Positions 37,578-47,464 of a DNA stretch of 64,000 bases are shown here, piece after piece; the first letter of the stretch is position 1, and every line of letters starts with the position of its first letter. The stretch is taken from contig NW_026928293.1 in the NCBI RefSeq assembly GCF_032062105.1, positions 62,001 through 126,000 on the forward strand, written 5' to 3'. The DNA is from Saccostrea cucullata. Its lineage: Eukaryota. A model generated the notes under the pieces. The model worked only from the letters and a program-made list of their open reading frames with translations. It was not told where the DNA came from and did not search any database. The position numbers and the translations under genes were made by a program.

Positions 37578-39467
37578 ATCAGTTCAGTATTGAAAAGTTT
37601 AAATATAAAGGTGGGTTCAGGGGTTGGGCGGGGTTATTTGAACAAACTTTAATCTATATTTTTTCATGCTTTATATAGATGATCAATCATGGGTTTAATT
37701 TGCTGTTCTTGTGAAGAATTTTAATGATATTTCTTATGTATGCCTACATTAAAAATTAAATTGATGTGGCCCCACTTTAATTTAAGTATTTAATTCCGAC
37801 CACAAACTTTTTTCTTTTGATTATCTAATAATATAGTATACAGGTCCTTGATTTATACAATAATTAATTTGGCAAAAAGTCTTTTCACTTGATCCCTTGG
37901 AAGTAGTAGTACGAATCTTAAATATATCGACCAAGATGTAGTGCTAGACTGGCTTGCCGATCCTCGATAATCATATATAGTCGTTTCGTAGGAATGAGAC
38001 AGGAAATGCCTGTCTAGATGTTCAGCATGAAATGAAATCGGGTTTGGCATACAATAAAATCTAAACTGTGATACAATGTTTACAAAAAAAATAGTGAAAA
38101 TTTATACTGGGAAAAATCATCTCAAGCAACGGTTCTGGAGTCCGCATATAGGTACATTTGGATCGTGATTTGTGACGATGACTAGGAAAAGGATTTACTA
38201 CTTTTCGCTGACTCCATTCGATACCAAAGAAGCGTGTGCCCACCAGGTATATCAAAATAATGTGCATCATATACGATAAAAAAGGCTAGCATGTTTTTTC
38301 TTTAATTTAATCCATTGTAACAATGTTTGTCGTATTCACAGATTACAGTATTCTAATAATATCCCCCTTAGACAGGCCTGACCATTAACATGCTTAATTA
38401 AGGTGTGTTTGGTTTTGATGATTCATATGTCCATATCCAGATCTCTGCATGCCATTCGCTACAGTAGTTACATATACCAGTAGTAGTTAGTTGGCAGACA
38501 AATCTGGATAGAGAACGATCTGGGCGTGTTTGTACATTTAAAGAATGTAGATAGCATTTTACTTACTGTAGAAATAACTGTAAGACAATGCACTAAGATC
38601 CTGTATTTATATTCATAGACATCCCCCATCTCAATTGTTAAAAAAAAAATTATACATCTAAGATGTACATTTTTGCTAACAATTAAGATGGGGAGTGCCT
38701 ATGATGTTATTGTCCTGTAACAGAAGGCTGGTAACAAAATTGAAAGGTCAGAGATGAGCAATATGCAATGAATGACTCAATATTATTAATGCAGAAAACT
38801 CAAAACTTCCAGAACAAAAGATTAAATTTACTTGAAATGGAGACTTTGGGATTAAGCAAACTTATCAGCTGCAGAAAAATAAAAGAAAGACGTTTTCAGG
38901 ATTTTATGCCACAGTAGCAACATAATGTTTTACAACTAATTTTGACATATGACCTGACTACATCAATGTATAAATTCTCTTTAATTCAGCATTCCAAGGG
39001 GAAGAACTTGACCTCTACATTTGCCAGATCTCAATTTTTATGCCTTTTTCCATGGTAATTCTTAGAAGGAGGGTCTAAAATCCTTTGCCAAACATACTGA
39101 TAAAGCTAAAAAAAAAAAAAAAAGAAACCATATACAATCTCAAATGAGAATTGTCTTATCAAAAAATGTTTGACAAGATTAGAAACATTTTAAAAAGCAA
39201 CATTCTTCTGGAATTAAAATAGGTAAAGATCATTCAAAATATGTGGGTTCTTGACAAGATCTGAATTTCAGCTGTTGTTTCATATTTAAATAGCCAACAT
39301 CGGAACTATTATTTCGTCTTTAATTCCGTCGCGGTTTTAATATTTAGTGTGTCTAACGAGATCTCGTTTTTGGCGTGAACTTGGGCAACATTTTGTAAAC
39401 AAGGACGCGCTGCTGAACTTGTCATGTCTTATGATGTCAAATAACCGCGTCTTACCTACAAATAACC

Positions 39468-42210
39468 ATGGTAAATTACCATTGTATTGCCGTGGGATGT
39501 AACAATGACTCCAGGAAATCTAACTTTATTAGTAAAAACCCGCATATGGTAGATAAAAATGGAAATGTTGTCACTTTTTATGTATTGCCGTCCGCAACTA
39601 AAAATCCAAAACTTCGGCGCCAGTGGATAAATACACACGGTACTAGGTCGTAAAAATATATAAACCTAGTAACACAGATCATTGGCACGCAGTATGCTCC
39701 AGACATTTTGTAGATGGAAGACCCACTGACACTAACCCAATACCAACTTTATTTGAATATAATAACTACATGCATGACCAGGCCCAGGGTAACAAGGAAA
39801 AAGGAAAACATTGAAACTTCAAAATACAAAAGTACTTCATCTTCCCAGGGGTTTGTATTTTAGCTTCTCGATCAATGATAATTTTACATAAAAATGTGAA
39901 ACCCATATTTCTATTATCAGATTATTAGGCCAAACGAAAATATATTCTTGTTTCCTGTTCCCTGACCAAAAAAGAAATAGGGTAGGTAGGTAGGGAAAAA
40001 ATTATTTTCAAAGCTCAATGGATGGAGAATATGTATCATGTAATAACAAGAAAACAGTATGTTTACACTTTACAGAGCAGGTTTATTAATAAAGATTTAT
40101 AAAATAAATTAAGGTATCCTGTGCACTTTAGATGTATTAGCTCTGTTAATGTTGTTGGGTGACTTTAGTATTTCAGGAAAATAGCCCCCCCCCCCCCCCC
40201 CCCCCCCAAATGAATATAAAAAATAATTAGGGTTGCAGGCTAAAATGTTAGGGTAGCTCGGGTGACAGGAAACAAGAGTACATATTAATTTTTCGCGTAA
40301 AGAATATATTCAATATAATTTGCATGAATAATCAATATCTAAATTTCATTCAGAAACACACACACACAAGTATCTTTTTATATCGCATGAATTATGTTGT
40401 AATAAAAACTGTTAATCAAACATTTTACATGCAGAAATGAAAGTCACTCTGAAGGAAAAAAACAAAGGACTTCACAGACTAGTGTATTTGTCCAGCCAGT
40501 ACCAGTGGCAGAGTTATATCAAGGCATACAGCATGAAATCATTATTCCTGACAAGGAAGGAGGAAAAGGTTGGAAGACACAGTTTTCTTAAAAATAACTA
40601 AATACATAACACTTCTTTGATTTTGTTTAAAAAGTTTGTCATTTATCTATGTTTTTTTTCTATTATCAGAAATGTCTGGATTAAAGAAACTTGCATAATC
40701 AATAATAACAAATATACCCCAAAAGATCATAACCAGTATATTTTCATATGCATAAAAATATGCTTTTGTATATGTATTTTTCTTTCACAGTTCCAATTAC
40801 AACTGATACACCTTATTCCCTACCTGGTATCATGCAACATGACCACCCATATGTAGCGAGTCCTATGTCAGGTTCATCTCATCTTAGTGACACAGACTGG
40901 GCAGATGCTGATACCCAAATAACAAATTTGGAACATGAAAATAGGCATCTGAAGGTATTTTTACAGCAGAGCAATTGTTTTTTTTAATTATTTCATGTTA
41001 TGTCACATAAATACATGTACAGGGTGTTTGAGCAAATATGTATTCTCTATTGTTTTTAATGTTTGTTTAAAAAAAATTTAATGTGTGCTTAACTTTGTAG
41101 GTTCATTGTGAACAACTCGAGGAGAGGATAGTGGCTTTTCAAGAGGAAAACACACAACTGAAAAATCAGTTAAATGAAAGTGAAAGACAAAGAAAGGAAG
41201 TTGAATCCAAACTTCTAAACAAAGACAAACTTTTCCGAGAGATTTTAATAGATAAACTAACGAAGTGTGACAACCATGTAAGACTTTTTCTTGGGCTGCC
41301 TTCTCTTCTGTTTTTAAAGGGTTTGTTCGACATACTGAATGGCGCAGCTTCCAGTATGAAGTATTGGACTCGTAGATCATCAAGTCATGAAAAAAAGTGG
41401 CACTCAGAAAATTTAAGGAGACCTGGGAAACAAAGAAAACTGCAGTTATTTGAAGAATTCATTTTGGCACTACTTCGTCTGCGTTTAGGCCTGAACACCA
41501 TGTTCTGTTCAGTTTTGTTTGGCGTGTCTCAGTCCACAGTTTCTTCCATATTCACCACATGGATGTGTTTCCTAGATCAGCAATTAAAACCATTACTTAA
41601 GTGGCCATCAAGGCAAAAAATAAAAAAGCATATGCCTCTTTCCTTCCGTTTAAAATACCCAAACACAAGAGTCATAATTGATGCAACAGAGATCTTTGTT
41701 CAACGTCCAAGGAATCCTTCAGCTCAGAGCAGAACTTGGTCAAATTACAAAAACAAGAACACTTTCAAAGCACTGGTTGGGATTTCACCAAATAGGGCCT
41801 TTACATTCATATCTGAATTATGGTCTGGAAACATTTCAGATCGCAGCATTACTCTGAGAAGTGGATTTCTAGATCTTATTCAGCGAGGTGATCATGTTAT
41901 GGCAGATCGCGGATTTCTAATTAATGACCTCCTTCTTCAAAGGGGAGCACAGCTGAATATGCCACCATTTTGTCGACCATGTCAGTATGGAAAAGGCAAA
42001 TACTTGACATCTAAACAAATTAAGGAGTCAAAAAACATTGCCTCATTGCGCATTCATGTGGAGCGTGCAATTCAGAGACTGAAAAGTTACAAATTCTTTG
42101 ATGGTATTATGTACATAAAATCATTGTCTGTTGCAAATCAAGCCTTACAAGTAGCGGGTATTTTTTGTAATTTTATGGCTCCCCTTGTCAGCAAAGTTCA
42201 GAAAAAATAA
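39468..42210 (+). CDS. THAP-domain / HTH / DDE_Tnp_4 (Harbinger/ISL2-like) transposase; THAP exon frameshifted
   Basis: Exon 1 39468-~39850 (CIAVGC...RRQW...VCSRHF...PIPTLF, split over frames); exons 40435-40568, 40791-40954 (DHPY motif) and 41101-42210 (coiled coil, HTH LRLRLGL..LFGVSQSTVS, catalytic IIDATE / MADRGF / RIHVERAI). Confidence 0.9.
39925..40300. mobile_element. MITE nested in intron 1 of the transposase gene
   Basis: Inverted ends ATATTCTTGTTTCCTGTTCCCTGACC / GGGTGACAGGAAACAAGAGTACATAT, flanked by TTA/TAA. Confidence 0.55.
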
Positions 42211-42569
42211 GATTTTCTAACTAAGTAAATAAAATACCATGATTATTGTTTGCAAGTGCTATAACATTACAAGTGCAACAACTTAAATTTTGTTGCAAAA
42301 GTTCATTCTTTCACATTATTTATTTGATATTTATATAGTTTACTGTTTTGACTGAAGGAAGTTTTATGTTAGTGTTATTTGTTATGTACTGTTATATTGA
42401 CATATCTATTATTACAGATTTACTGATTAAAAGTTTATATGAAGGACAAATCTTTTTTATCAGTGTTCCGTAATGCTGCACTAAGTCTGCAATATTCAAA
42501 GCATGTAGGAAAAAAATGACTGATTTGGATATGTTTTTGAAAAATTTCTTTAATTGCATAATAATAAAT

Positions 42570-44645
42570 TCAACTGATGATAATTTTTGGAAATATAAAT
42601 GTCTTATAAAACTTGACAATTTTTTGTTTCATACATCCCCATATTTGTCCATTGAAGAACACTCTTTCAGAAAAAATTCCTGAGTGTGTGTACAAAATAA
42701 AATCACAATAGGTACGCTTTGTAACAGCCATTTGACACATCATTTGACAATAATATGGTGAGTTACTGTTTTTCCTTAAAACAGGAAATCCATTTCTTAG
42801 TTCAAAATTTTTTAAATCACATGCTGCTGCCTCCTTTGGGTTTTTATCTTTATACTTGTATGGACATTTAATTTCGAGGCACCCTGGTAAACAACAATCA
42901 CACTCTAGTAAACCATCTGGTGAGGCACCAATGAAAGGAAGCTCATCATCGATTATCAGGCCTGCACTGGAATATCTTAGATTAGTGTGAATTTTCCCAT
43001 TTAACTCCAAATACATATCTCTACCTTTTGCTTCATATTTTCTACCATGTACAAGTGCAGGAATACAATTAGATTCTGAAGTAGCATATTTTTTACAAAG
43101 AATTTGTGTAACAAGGCTACCATTTTCATTCCGACCACTGAAATGCAGGCAGTTAAACACAGATGATGCAGTGATGCGACCTGCTCTTTGATGATGCCAT
43201 ACATCTGATGAGTTTTGACCAACTGTACATTTTGAAATTTTGACTGCAAGATTTCTGTCAAAATAAACTCTAAGACCATCAACAAATTCTTCAAAGGAAG
43301 CATTTGGATTCATCACATAAAAATTTTGAGCAAATTCAGTCACATTCTCACACACACTTTCTTCAAATTCATACTCAGAATCAGAACTATCAGATAGGGT
43401 ATATGCTGCACATGCAGCCAATTTTTCTGCTTTTAAAAGTTTGTATATATCTTTTTCAGTTCGATTGTTTAATTGTTCATTAGTAACAGGTGTGTATTCT
43501 TCATCACATGCCATGGGCTGAGGTTGGTTGTTTGGTTGCTGTCTTAGATCAAGGTCAGTAATTTTTACTGGTCTTGTTGACCTCACAGGATTTGTCCACT
43601 TAGCCTTTTTATCAGTGACACCAATCTCTGTTCGATCATTCAGTCCTAGGCAAAATTGTTGAAGTCCAAACAGCAAAGCAGCAATATGCTTACATGTACC
43701 ATCACCACTACAAAAAAATTATGGTACTGCTATTTATATTATGAAGTCAAAATTTGCCATCTTTATTCATGCTTTGATACCTTTGCTATCGTTTAAAAAA
43801 AATACCATTTATACATGCAGAATTTTAATTTTGCGAATCGTTGAATGCTTTAAAAAATATATTATACTTTTTTAAAAATCATTACAGCTTTTCTTCTAGA
43901 GAACAGTTAGTTATTTCCGCAATCTGATAATTTTTTCTTTTAAAAACATTGGATAGAAAATTCTGATCTGTATAAATATAAAATGCTTATAGAGCAGCCA
44001 ACATATAAGGAAAACACTGATATCATGTCACAACCTAGAATTATAATTTCAATCCAATGTTTTCTCAAACGTCCGCGACGAATTATTGTATAATAGATCT
44101 AGTACATACGCAACACATGTGCACTCTCCAGAGACAACTGTTCCATTCTCTTGTACCAACAGCCACATTTTGTAGGGCTCAGCTGTCTGTCGTTCCTCTG
44201 GAGTGGATGAACCTCTGATATAACAGAGATTAGAGTCGAGTTTAGACATGGCCACGTTACTAATGTGACCATTTGAATGCAAGCGGTAGCTGTTGTCGGA
44301 TTTGTAATTTTTCAGTCTTTCATTTGTCCACAGGCAACTGGTTTTTAAATAATACTGAATATCATACGCCTCAATGGACGGTATTTTATCTAAACAATCA
44401 TCCCATTTAATATTTGGGGAATTGGGATGTGGATATGTTACGCCATGGACAGTCCTACGTTTCAGTCGATCTGCAGATTCTTGTGCGAAATCGCATTTTG
44501 GCTGCAAATTTTGTCTACACGCTTCGCGAGCTAAGTCTAATAACTCATGTTTTCTGTAGCCCGATACCCTTATACCACGATCTGTCAAAAATTTCTTTAA
44601 ATCGGGCAAAGATTTTTGCACAAGAAATGATTCGTTCTCTGCCAT
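42570..44645 (-). CDS. SAP-like + SWIM zinc finger + YqaJ (lambda-exonuclease-like) protein, ~557 aa, 2 exons
   Basis: Exon 44645-44110 spliced (GT..AG, phase 2) to 43707-42570 rebuilds the SWIM motif ECTCVAGDGTCKH. N-terminal LPDLKKFLTDRGIRVSGYRKHELL is SAP-like. YqaJ motifs WHHQRAGRITAS, GRKYE, GASPDG, LEIKCP, YYCQMMCQM are intact. Confidence 0.92.
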
Positions 44646-44819
44646 TATTTTAGCTACCGATTTGTTTACAAAAGTTGCCCAAGTTACGCGTCATTTTTGT
44701 GACTTCTTTTTTAAAAGAGTTCCACAATTTTGGAGTTCCGATATTCCGTATTGGTAATTGCATGTACACAGTGAATTTAAATGGATAAATGCATTAAAAT
44801 GATGAGTACATCTGTCTTC

Positions 44820-45393
44820 ATCTTTGATGATTCAGGGGTATATAGTTTTTGCCCTGTCCATTCGTCTGTTTCACTTTGTCCACAAAAACATTAACCTTGG
44901 CCATAACTTTTGAGTGGAAGGGACTATGACTGTCATATTTCACAGGTGTATTCCTTGTGACAAGACCTTTCTTCTGGTACCACAAAATTGGACCTCTTGA
45001 TCTTGTTCGACCCAATTTTACAAAAAAAAATCAAACTTCTTTCGTGGCCGTAACTTTTGAATTGTTGGCACTAGGGCTTTCATACTTCATCTGTGTATTC
45101 ACTGTGGCAAGACCTTTCAATGGGTAAAATATTTTAACTTTTGACTATTACCTTTGAGTTTAACCAAGTTTTCAAAAACTTTAAACTTGTCCACAACTTT
45201 TGAACTGTTAGTACTAGGGCTTTCATATTTTACAGGTACATTGTGTATTCCTTGTAATGAGACCTTCCTTCGGATACCAACATGCTTGACCTGTTGACCT
45301 TGGAGTTTGACTTGCATTGCATTTGATAAACTTTTAATCCTCACCATAAGCTGCCATAGGGGGCATCACAGTATTTCACAAACACATCTTGTT
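44820..45393 (+). mobile_element. Helentron-type family B copy
   Basis: Colinear with 17678-18232; 3' end GGGGGCATCACAGTATTTCACAAACACATCTTGTT. Confidence 0.75.
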
Positions 45394-46045
45394 TTCTTAT
45401 GTTTGTGTCAAATTGTAAATTTAAAAAAATGTAACATGTAGGCCTATTATGAAACACTCTATAGGTTTACTATTACTCATTCGTTTTACACTATATGTAA
45501 AGCTAACTTTCTTTATATCCAAAGAACAAAGCAAAATCCTAGCATCCCATAGCATATCTATAAGTCATGGCAGCATTCAAGATTTTTCCCAATGCTAATT
45601 ACGTCACTTCCATTTCACACAGGACATAACACACACAAATGATTCAAGTTTAATTTAATACTTCTCAAACTAATTGATAGTTACTGGTGCTGGATTAAAA
45701 TATTTTGAGTTAAAAAAAATTGGAATATATCTTGATTTTTATCAAAATTATCAAAGATTTAAGACAGCAAAAATGGGGTCACGGAGCAGGGTTGAAATTG
45801 ACTCATTTACATAATAAACACTTCATAATCTTTATAGCCATACTTACCCCGGTAAACTCATATACTCTATCTATGTAATTGTATGATTTAGTTAACATTT
45901 TAGAGTCAGCAGTTGACAACAATTTTGAAAATTTGTAAGTCCCAGAGCAAAAGTGTGTTATTGTTCTTTGTGATACAGATGTATATTTACTTTACCAATT
46001 TTAATTTGTATTTCAGTTAGAGAGAATGCAAAAGAGCATCCAGCA

Positions 46046-47464
46046 ATGAATGTAGAGGAATCAACTGATTTTGGCAATCTGCCGATTGTCGTTTGGATTC
46101 GGGTATTGGAATATTTATCACTTAAAGACAGATACAGTGCATCTCTGGCGTGTTCAAACATTTACAATGCATTTAATCACCCCACACTATGGCAGAAAGT
46201 AACACTAGATGTAGGGGGAAGCTCAGGAAAACACAGAAACTTCCACTGTGTTAAAATTCCCAAAAGAAACTTTCTTCTCGTTCGTAGATTTGCAAAAATG
46301 TTCTATGACGTTACCTTTTTTATTTGTGAGCCCTTACATGTGAGCTTTGGAGAATGGAACACTGTTTTAGAAGAACACATCAAGGATTTTAAATTGGGTC
46401 ATCTAACATTGGATGTAGGTGGTTTGAGAAACAAACCAAATGTATCAGAAATGAAAATTCGTACCGAAAATATGAAGCCTATGGTAGACATAGTTAGAAA
46501 TCAGTCACATTTAAAGACTTTTGTCGTAAACTCATGGCCAGTATTTGCTAACTCCTTGCAGAATCCTGATGAAAATATATTTCAAGCTGTTATTGAAAAT
46601 AACAACATTAAAGGTCTGAGAAAACTAGGCTTGTTTAAATGCGATTCCACGGCTTGGTCTGTGCGAAGACCACATTTAATTTCATCAGAGTTGACTTTGA
46701 AATTGGTGGATCATTTCAAGAACTTGACCCATTTAGCCTTAAGATCGCCTATGATCACGTCAGATCTTATCTCGAGTCTATCATTGAGGGGTAGAGAGAA
46801 GCTTCAACAATTACACATAACAATTAATTTTATTCCTGAAGATGAATCCTTCAAAATGCCAACAGTGAATGAATCAGTTTGGAAAGATTTCTCAAGTTAC
46901 AACACGAATGTGAAAGTGAAAGTTTTGGTTTTGTCAAGAGCACCACATTACAAACTAGAGTGTTTCCTGAGGCCTTCCTGTCCTCTCTATGAAATAAAGT
47001 TTGGAGAATATATCAGAAGTGACAAGGAATTTATCGCTTACCTGGTGGATTCTTTCAATTCGACACTGGATACATTTGAATATAACGAAGAGGATGGAGA
47101 TTTTGAAAGAGAACTAGTTACTCTTGTGGAAAACTCAGACCAACTGTGTAGGTTAAAATACTGCGGCAAAATCAACTGTCAAAATGTTATACGTCTTGCG
47201 AAATTGAGAAAAAAGAACTGGGAGTCGTTTCACTTGATTAGAAAGAACATTTATAAAAAGAATGTCGAGAAGAATCCGGAAATGACCATTGACAGTGATC
47301 AAGTTATAGCGAAAAATAAGGATGGAGTGTATGTCCTTGTGGATCTAGTGAAATTTCACGAACAGGTTTCTATGTTAGACCACGAAGATGAGGAACAGAT
47401 AATGATTGAGAAAGTGTCCGAATATTTGGGTCGAGATTGGTTTCCTGACAAGTTTTATCAATAG
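46046..47464 (+). CDS. F-box protein with a probable LRR-like C-terminal region, 472 aa in one exon
   Basis: N-terminal F-box FGNLPIVVWIRVLEYLSLKDRYSASLACSNIYNAFNHPTLW; LxxLxL repeats (LRKLGL, LTHLAL, LQQLHI). An acceptor at 46016 with an open frame to the ATG means an upstream exon may extend it. Confidence 0.88.
   Translation: MNVEESTDFGNLPIVVWIRVLEYLSLKDRYSASLACSNIYNAFNHPTLWQKVTLDVGGSSGKHRNFHCVKIPKRNFLLVRRFAKMFYDVTFFICEPLHVSFGEWNTVLEEHIKDFKLGHLTLDVGGLRNKPNVSEMKIRTENMKPMVDIVRNQSHLKTFVVNSWPVFANSLQNPDENIFQAVIENNNIKGLRKLGLFKCDSTAWSVRRPHLISSELTLKLVDHFKNLTHLALRSPMITSDLISSLSLRGREKLQQLHITINFIPEDESFKMPTVNESVWKDFSSYNTNVKVKVLVLSRAPHYKLECFLRPSCPLYEIKFGEYIRSDKEFIAYLVDSFNSTLDTFEYNEEDGDFERELVTLVENSDQLCRLKYCGKINCQNVIRLAKLRKKNWESFHLIRKNIYKKNVEKNPEMTIDSDQVIAKNKDGVYVLVDLVKFHEQVSMLDHEDEEQIMIEKVSEYLGRDWFPDKFYQ

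Follow-up and report, generated by a model that had tools for sequence, protein, structure and literature searches.

A two-gene ISL2EU transposon of Saccostrea cucullata with a conserved lambda-exonuclease-like nuclease that may act on donor ends

The element and its two genes

The 64,000-nucleotide stretch of the Saccostrea cucullata genome analysed here (the window; NCBI RefSeq assembly GCF_032062105.1, contig NW_026928293.1, positions 62,001 to 126,000) contains a transposon with two convergent genes, a transposase on the plus strand and a lambda-exonuclease-like nuclease on the minus strand (Table 1). Its conservation among the families found in the genome makes a function of the nuclease in transposition very likely, possibly on the donor ends left by excision. 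The element limits proposed in a preliminary description of the window agree with 14 distinct left and 14 distinct right family ends that share the same break bases (16 matches per end search). A repeat search of the genome showed five contiguous full-length copies, the window's included, along with two further copies interrupted by insertions and a number of partial copies. The window copy is 97.9-98.4% identical to seven sister copies and 98.3-98.4% identical to the young sisters, which are 99.4-99.8% alike among themselves.

Table 1. Features of the element and its target site in the window. TIR stands for terminal inverted repeat and TSD for target site duplication.
Feature	Positions	Strand	Basis and remarks
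ISL2EU transposon copy	39292..44749	.	5,458 bp; genome copy alignment and empty allele L096
Left AT of the A/AT/T target (conventional TSD; the T may as well be base 1 of the element)	39290..39291	+	Ends, empty allele
Left imperfect TIR, 16 bp	39292..39307	+	Match to right end
Transposase exon 1 (THAP), broken here	39468..39850	+	Pfam; sister alignment; splice joint in 3/3 RNA-type runs
Nested inverted-repeat element in transposase intron 1	39927..40291 (limits approximate)	.	Arms 39932-39965 and 40258-40291; also in sister copies
Transposase exon 2	40435..40568	+	Sister alignment; RNA-type contigs; P0121
Transposase exon 3	40791..40954	+	Sister alignment; RNA-type contigs; P0121
Transposase exon 4, open, with coiled coil, HTH_Tnp_4 and DDE_Tnp_4	41101..42210	+	Pfam E 1.5e-37 and 1.5e-13
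Nuclease exon 2: SWIM second half, linker, YqaJ/lambda-exonuclease domain (~42717-43199)	42570..43707	-	Pfam, homologues, fold
Nuclease intron, 402 nt, GT..AG, dividing the SWIM finger	43708..44109	-	Conceptual splicing; joined in run X6 contig (record 10)
Nuclease exon 1: SAP-like module and SWIM finger first half	44110..44645	-	Pfam, conceptual splicing, fold match
Right imperfect TIR, 16 bp	44734..44749	-	Positions 2-4 variable between copies
Right AT of the A/AT/T target (conventional TSD; the A may as well belong to the element as its last base)	44750..44751	+	Ends, empty allele

The element is almost certainly a member of ISL2EU, the group to which the preliminary description had assigned the gene pair. 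The transposase carries THAP, helix-turn-helix and DDE domains (Pfam on the window exons and on the database protein P0121), the second open reading frame (ORF) encodes a YqaJ protein, AT lies on both sides with an A/AT/T empty site, and the TIR length falls within the 6-259 bp of the group; the assignment relies on these domain, target and TIR features, the transposase tree built here being of families of one genome only. Known ISL2EU elements likewise combine a THAP-helix-turn-helix-DDE transposase, a YqaJ ORF, an A/AT/T target, short TIRs, a length of ~5 kb and an animal host. This two-gene class of animals is already known, and the window element adds a member. The two TIRs are identical at 12 of 16 positions, as were 40 of 200,000 random pairs. 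They are thus short and imperfect as first described, but this is no peculiarity: Table S2 of Han 2015 (PMC4482050) lists TIRs of 6-18 bp for many ISL2EU families, and the idea that short TIRs are unusual in the group was rejected. ISL2EU termini are usually, not obligatorily, GG according to the same source, whereas those of the window element start AG/AC. The SAP and SWIM modules of the window nuclease are unmentioned in the ISL2EU descriptions examined from that source. In contrast to known ISL2EU elements, the window copy has a broken transposase.

Two other types of element share features with this one. Spy has a transposase of the sister clade and an AT-rich palindromic target, but it is described as inserting at AAA/TTT without duplication, mostly with one ORF and with no THAP domain (PMC4122938), whereas the window element has an AATT empty site, two genes and a THAP domain and is not placed in Spy. 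KolobokE, described as an animal DNA transposon of another superfamily, also carries a lambda-exonuclease-like PD-(D/E)xK nuclease (PMC9587614); the AATT target, the separate opposite-strand nuclease gene and the DDE_Tnp_4 transposase set the window element apart from it.

All three transposase introns are spliced in contigs from the three RNA-type runs (one recorded as RNA, two guessed to be RNA), and P0121 has the same exon chain. The 592-residue frame is open in four of the seven aligned sisters (L002, L003, L006 and L008). In exon 1 of the window copy, however, 8 additional nucleotides at 39633-39658 shift the frame and produce stops at 39651 and 39711, and the frame is restored by 4 further nucleotides at 39791-39815. 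In exon 4, a Gly that 80 homologues all have is replaced by Arg at 41794. The domains of the THAP-DDE transposase in the preliminary description were found by Pfam, but the gene is not intact; the sister alignment led us to reject autonomy, and the window copy as assembled cannot be autonomous. The 8 additional nucleotides are missing from the aligned reads and contigs; they may have arisen by mutation in this copy or by an error in the assembly. Both genes are open in three of the seven sisters (L002, L003 and L008). The nested inverted-repeat element of intron 1 occurs at ~19 further genomic places at 74-79% identity.

Structure and conservation of the nuclease

Joining of the two nuclease exons yields the 557-residue protein expected from the preliminary description, with no internal stops. 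Exon 2 matches the database protein P0001, also of 557 residues, at 98% identity, and one contig from run X6 (whose RNA type is a guess) joins 43707 to 44110 exactly. The best database matches bear oyster and mussel labels, as expected of a bivalve host. The gene is open in five of the seven sister copies. Its YqaJ domain is detected by Pfam with an E value of 5e-19, and the best sequence matches are lambda exonuclease and LHK-Exo (E 2.5e-7). The structure model, built from 78 homologues, has a predicted local distance difference test score of 86. Comparisons of its C-terminal part showed the closest resemblance to LHK-Exo (Z 18.4, root mean square deviation (r.m.s.d.) 2.4, 177 aligned residues) and lambda exonuclease (Z 17.8, r.m.s.d. 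2.9, 196 aligned), followed by the Epstein-Barr virus alkaline nuclease (Z 17.1); TnsA is absent among the fold matches listed for the model. The key residues W349, R353, E404, D443, E457, K459 and Q500 are all encoded by exon 2. R353, present in 75 of 76 homologues, aligns with Arg-28 of lambda exonuclease, which is reported to bind the 5'-phosphate and drive processive digestion (PMC11611040). The protein thus has the PD-(D/E)xK catalytic residues, the fold and the Arg pocket for a 5'-phosphate of the lambda-exonuclease family, and its exonuclease site is complete, as had been claimed. These three features are shared with lambda exonuclease, LHK-Exo and the baculovirus and herpesvirus alkaline nucleases. 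In comparison with this group, the window nuclease has additional N-terminal SAP and SWIM modules, and the element is without an annealing-protein partner.

The two N-terminal modules were compared by fold and by sequence profile. The N terminus resembles SAP domains with Z of 5-7 (PIAS1 SAP: Z 6.9, r.m.s.d. 1.9, 49 aligned), whereas the Pfam SAP match is below the cut-off. A CxC-x6-CxH motif spans the intron, and residues 89-200 resemble the ZSWIM8 fold (Z 8.5, r.m.s.d. 3.1, 98 aligned), in keeping with the proposed SWIM finger split by the intron; Pfam SWIM, however, gave no match at E<=1 in five full-length nuclease proteins. Among the homologues covering each position, the ligands are kept at C184 in 62 of 62, at H186 in 61 of 62, at C175 in 34 of 42 and at C177 in 35 of 45; many homologues start at exon 2.

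The gene pair was followed through the genome from both sides. A YqaJ profile search gave 502 candidates, of which 150 were scored; ten belong to the window family and 120 of the other 140 were fetched. These 120 loci form 38 families, and an ISL2EU-type DDE gene lies inside the fetched 5.8-10 kb at 113 of them. The genes are mostly arranged tail to tail, in tandem in one family (L180, L187, L188 and L198) and head to head in four (L174, L175, L178, L179, L192, L193, L204 and L221), which form one clade in both trees. In the reverse search, 148 DDE hits were scored of 1,127 candidates and 99 of them examined: 64 have a YqaJ hit no more than 7 kb away and 35 more were fetched, 31 of which hold a nuclease gene or its remains, giving 95 of 99 altogether. 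Of the four fetched loci lacking one, three are truncated copies from families that do bear the nuclease, and the fourth is a lone locus close to the end of a contig. The copies of the window family carry the nuclease. The DDE hits include a near-identical group (G000:C20380:13961-14683 and ~13 similar) with open frames of 504-513 amino acids, which may represent a young family whose nuclease is divergent or absent.

At least 43 ISL2EU-type families with a readable gene pair are present in the genome, far above the four given for the Pacific oyster in Table S2 of Han 2015 (PMC4482050). In these 43, for which both domains had to be readable and 15 groups were dropped as too broken, G400, E404, D443, E457, K459 and Q500 are invariant, and none of the 40 families covering W349 and R353 has lost either residue. 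The nuclease of the closest family pair has a ratio of nonsynonymous to synonymous substitution rates (dN/dS) of 0.085, and the transposase one of 0.060. Among the 14 closest pairs, three others with a measurable nuclease or transposase ratio gave 0.115-0.188; ratios are few because the nuclease dS is saturated in ten of the 14. Comparison of the window copy with its sisters showed a ratio of nonsynonymous to synonymous polymorphism (pN/pS) of ~0.2-0.3. Between an older subfamily and L003, 22 synonymous and 13 replacement codons were counted in nuclease exon 2, 8-9 and 10-11 in nuclease exon 1, and 21-22 and 5-6 in transposase exon 4. By these sequence ratios, the nuclease does not evolve neutrally but is under purifying selection. 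The trees of the two genes share 21 of 22 and 12 of 13 splits with good support, the first count being for transposase splits found again in the nuclease tree, and have no well-supported conflicts (Mantel rho 0.59). It is the kept residues, the purifying selection and this co-divergence that make a function of the nuclease in transposition very likely.

A nuclease carried as a passenger, or serving outside transposition by degrading extrachromosomal DNA that alerts the host or structurally like the Harbinger Myb protein, would be in line with the three gene arrangements within this genome and with the nuclease-less and nuclease-only families printed in Table S2 of Han 2015 (PMC4482050). However, the catalytic residues do not vary in any of the 43 families and dN/dS is far below 1, by which both a neutral passenger and a role that is purely structural are excluded, and we regard the passenger explanation as a whole as unlikely.

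Junctions and target site

Comparison with the empty allele L096 (90-95% alike in both flanks) showed AATT at the empty site, whereas the filled allele has AAT to the left and ATT to the right of the element. AT adjoins 13 of the 14 left and 11 of the 14 right ends of the window family (counted by eye). At an AATT target, duplication of AT and blunt insertion of a T...A element are indistinguishable. The A/AT/T cut was "speculated" by Han 2015, where one canonical empty site is displayed (PMC4482050), and Harbinger relatives are described with 0-, 2- and 3-bp duplications (PMC12730594). Across the families, AT is found at 83 of the 86 left ends and 84 of the 91 right ends (167 of 177; counted by eye on hand-picked ends, with duplicates merged and families without clear ends omitted). 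Eight two-ended copies are non-AT on one side, and in no copy do the two sides show an identical non-AT pair; the inner base is changed at 5 and the outer base at 7 of the 177 junctions. These counts do not separate the models, because later mutation would give about the same numbers.

The young insertion L004 has AT on the left and AA on the right, and its seven fetched paralogous empty sites all read AAAA. This junction needs no mutation if the insertion was blunt or an overhang was carried, whereas duplication by fill-in requires that one particular base changed afterwards. A carried overhang is described for piggyBac (PMC7351741), to which the analogy is restricted, since no literature was found on mismatch repair at non-TTAA piggyBac sites. 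If the flanking T and A were carried by the element, as blunt TG...CA or TA...TA ends or as an overhang, the YqaJ nuclease could be an end-shaping second subunit and the pair a eukaryotic counterpart of Tn7 TnsA/TnsB. This appears improbable, and the case for it comes from the single site L004.

At L183 and L150, blunt insertion is unsupported, as the empty paralogs have the canonical AATT and the filled left flanks are altered beside the junction, with two bases changed at L183 and ~10 nucleotides missing at L150. Such flanks would fit a nuclease acting after strand transfer, at target or repair intermediates, by flank resection or flap removal, with a higher yield of completed insertions as the only effect. 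Among the related folds are those of flap- and overhang-processing nucleases (Dna2, MGME1 and Cas4, Z 9-10). However, the clean AT at 167 of 177 junctions speaks against it, and the L150 loss may predate the insertion, because the paralogs there are only 77-79% identical. We consider this role highly doubtful. No empty site was found for L008, nor from the more distant L150 flank.

Other variants were seen at the junctions. The adjoining A is missing from the right ends of L007, L147 and L154 (two families, two copies in one), where the flank starts TT or TA. Family 4 (L147, L152, L154, L155 and L172) has TAT...ATA instead of AAT...ATT flanks. The first core bases vary by family (G, A or T), whereas the adjoining T and A are nearly constant. 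At L002:6983-7690 (minus strand), a 716-bp left-end fragment is directly followed by a full copy, with AATT within the element as inner junction; from its sequence this junction looks transposase-made, by insertion into a sister copy or by one-ended transposition.

A possible role in donor-end resection

DDE enzymes excise an element and join its 3' ends to the target, and resection commits a break to homologous repair. The residues and fold of the second protein predict an active 5'-3' exonuclease, which may bind ends through its SAP and SWIM modules. Since the pocket needs a free 5'-phosphate, the nuclease would load on a 5'-phosphorylated end and act after the transposase cut. Such ends would arise only then, on the released donor flanks or on the non-transferred strands of the element, and the donor flanks are favoured because they are the unprotected ends. 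The donor ends left by excision would be resected 5' to 3' and the break repaired homologously from the sister chromatid, restoring the element at the donor site; with the excised copy inserted elsewhere, the net copy gain would be the selected benefit. Donor-site restoration, suggested in the preliminary description, is consistent with the conserved 5'-phosphate pocket, the resection step itself being inferred. It is our tentative preference, held at somewhat less than even confidence. By analogy, the mostly single ORF of Spy (PMC4122938) suggests that this transposase clade can cut both strands without a nuclease partner, which would favour a role on the donor ends.

Several points weigh against donor-end resection. 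Host cells have resection nucleases of their own, so that the gain from a private one is hard to see. The evidence consists of sequence, fold and conservation. Co-divergence of the two genes is predicted by linkage alone, and discovery by a YqaJ profile is biased toward intact motifs. About 14 near-identical DDE hits, among the 49 of 148 outside the examined set, have no top-150 YqaJ hit nearby. In Table S2 of Han 2015 (PMC4482050), families of 100-116 copies have a transposase of 523-528 amino acids and no YqaJ ORF, and one family has YqaJ alone.

The same data also fit trimming of the element's own ends. The nuclease would then be a second transposition subunit that, by analogy with TnsA, trims or cuts the non-transferred strand or the 5' flank at the element ends and is required either to excise the element or to seal the insertion. 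Tn7 TnsA/TnsB similarly pairs a PD-(D/E)xK-type nuclease with a DDE transposase, a functional analogy only; the restriction-enzyme-like TnsA is reported to make the 5' ends and the DDE enzyme the 3' ends (bioRxiv 10.64898/2026.05.05.722991), and the related Harbinger elements to require both genes for transposition in vitro (PMC9179366). The near-universal gene pairing, with no partner swaps in 43 families, agrees with a subunit role, as does the L004 junction, which plain gap fill-in does not give. However, TnsA is an endonuclease nicking the non-transferred strand, whereas the ISL2EU enzyme has exonuclease-type residues, and its conserved Trp/Arg pocket is of the end-loading exonuclease type and not that of a nicking endonuclease. 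Moreover, Spy is reported to transpose with one ORF (PMC4122938), and nuclease-less ISL2EU families are in print (Table S2 of Han 2015, PMC4482050). We rate the subunit role as the main alternative, somewhat less likely than donor-end resection.

Around the element, the window contains a 35-nucleotide hairpin on the left (38613-38704), a very high-copy repeat with units ~145 bp apart on the right (44868-45302) and, just downstream, a single long open frame of 496 amino acids from stop to stop with an F-box domain (45974-47464).

That the role of the exonuclease is not established, as the preliminary description had put it, agrees with Han 2015, according to which the second ORF has no known role (PMC4482050); no proof of ISL2EU activity was known to the authors of a 2022 paper (PMC9179366). 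Our literature search, with most subscription papers and the Repbase reports outside its scope, found no functional study of an ISL2EU nuclease. The window copy is a poor assay substrate because its transposase is broken. Its family, however, is young, has three copies with both genes open and has both genes spliced in RNA-type contigs, and is thus a usable start for first assays of ISL2EU excision, integration and donor repair. If the nuclease shapes the ends, ISL2EU would be a two-nuclease transposase in animals; if it steers donor repair, ISL2EU would be a cut-and-paste element carrying its own means of copy gain.

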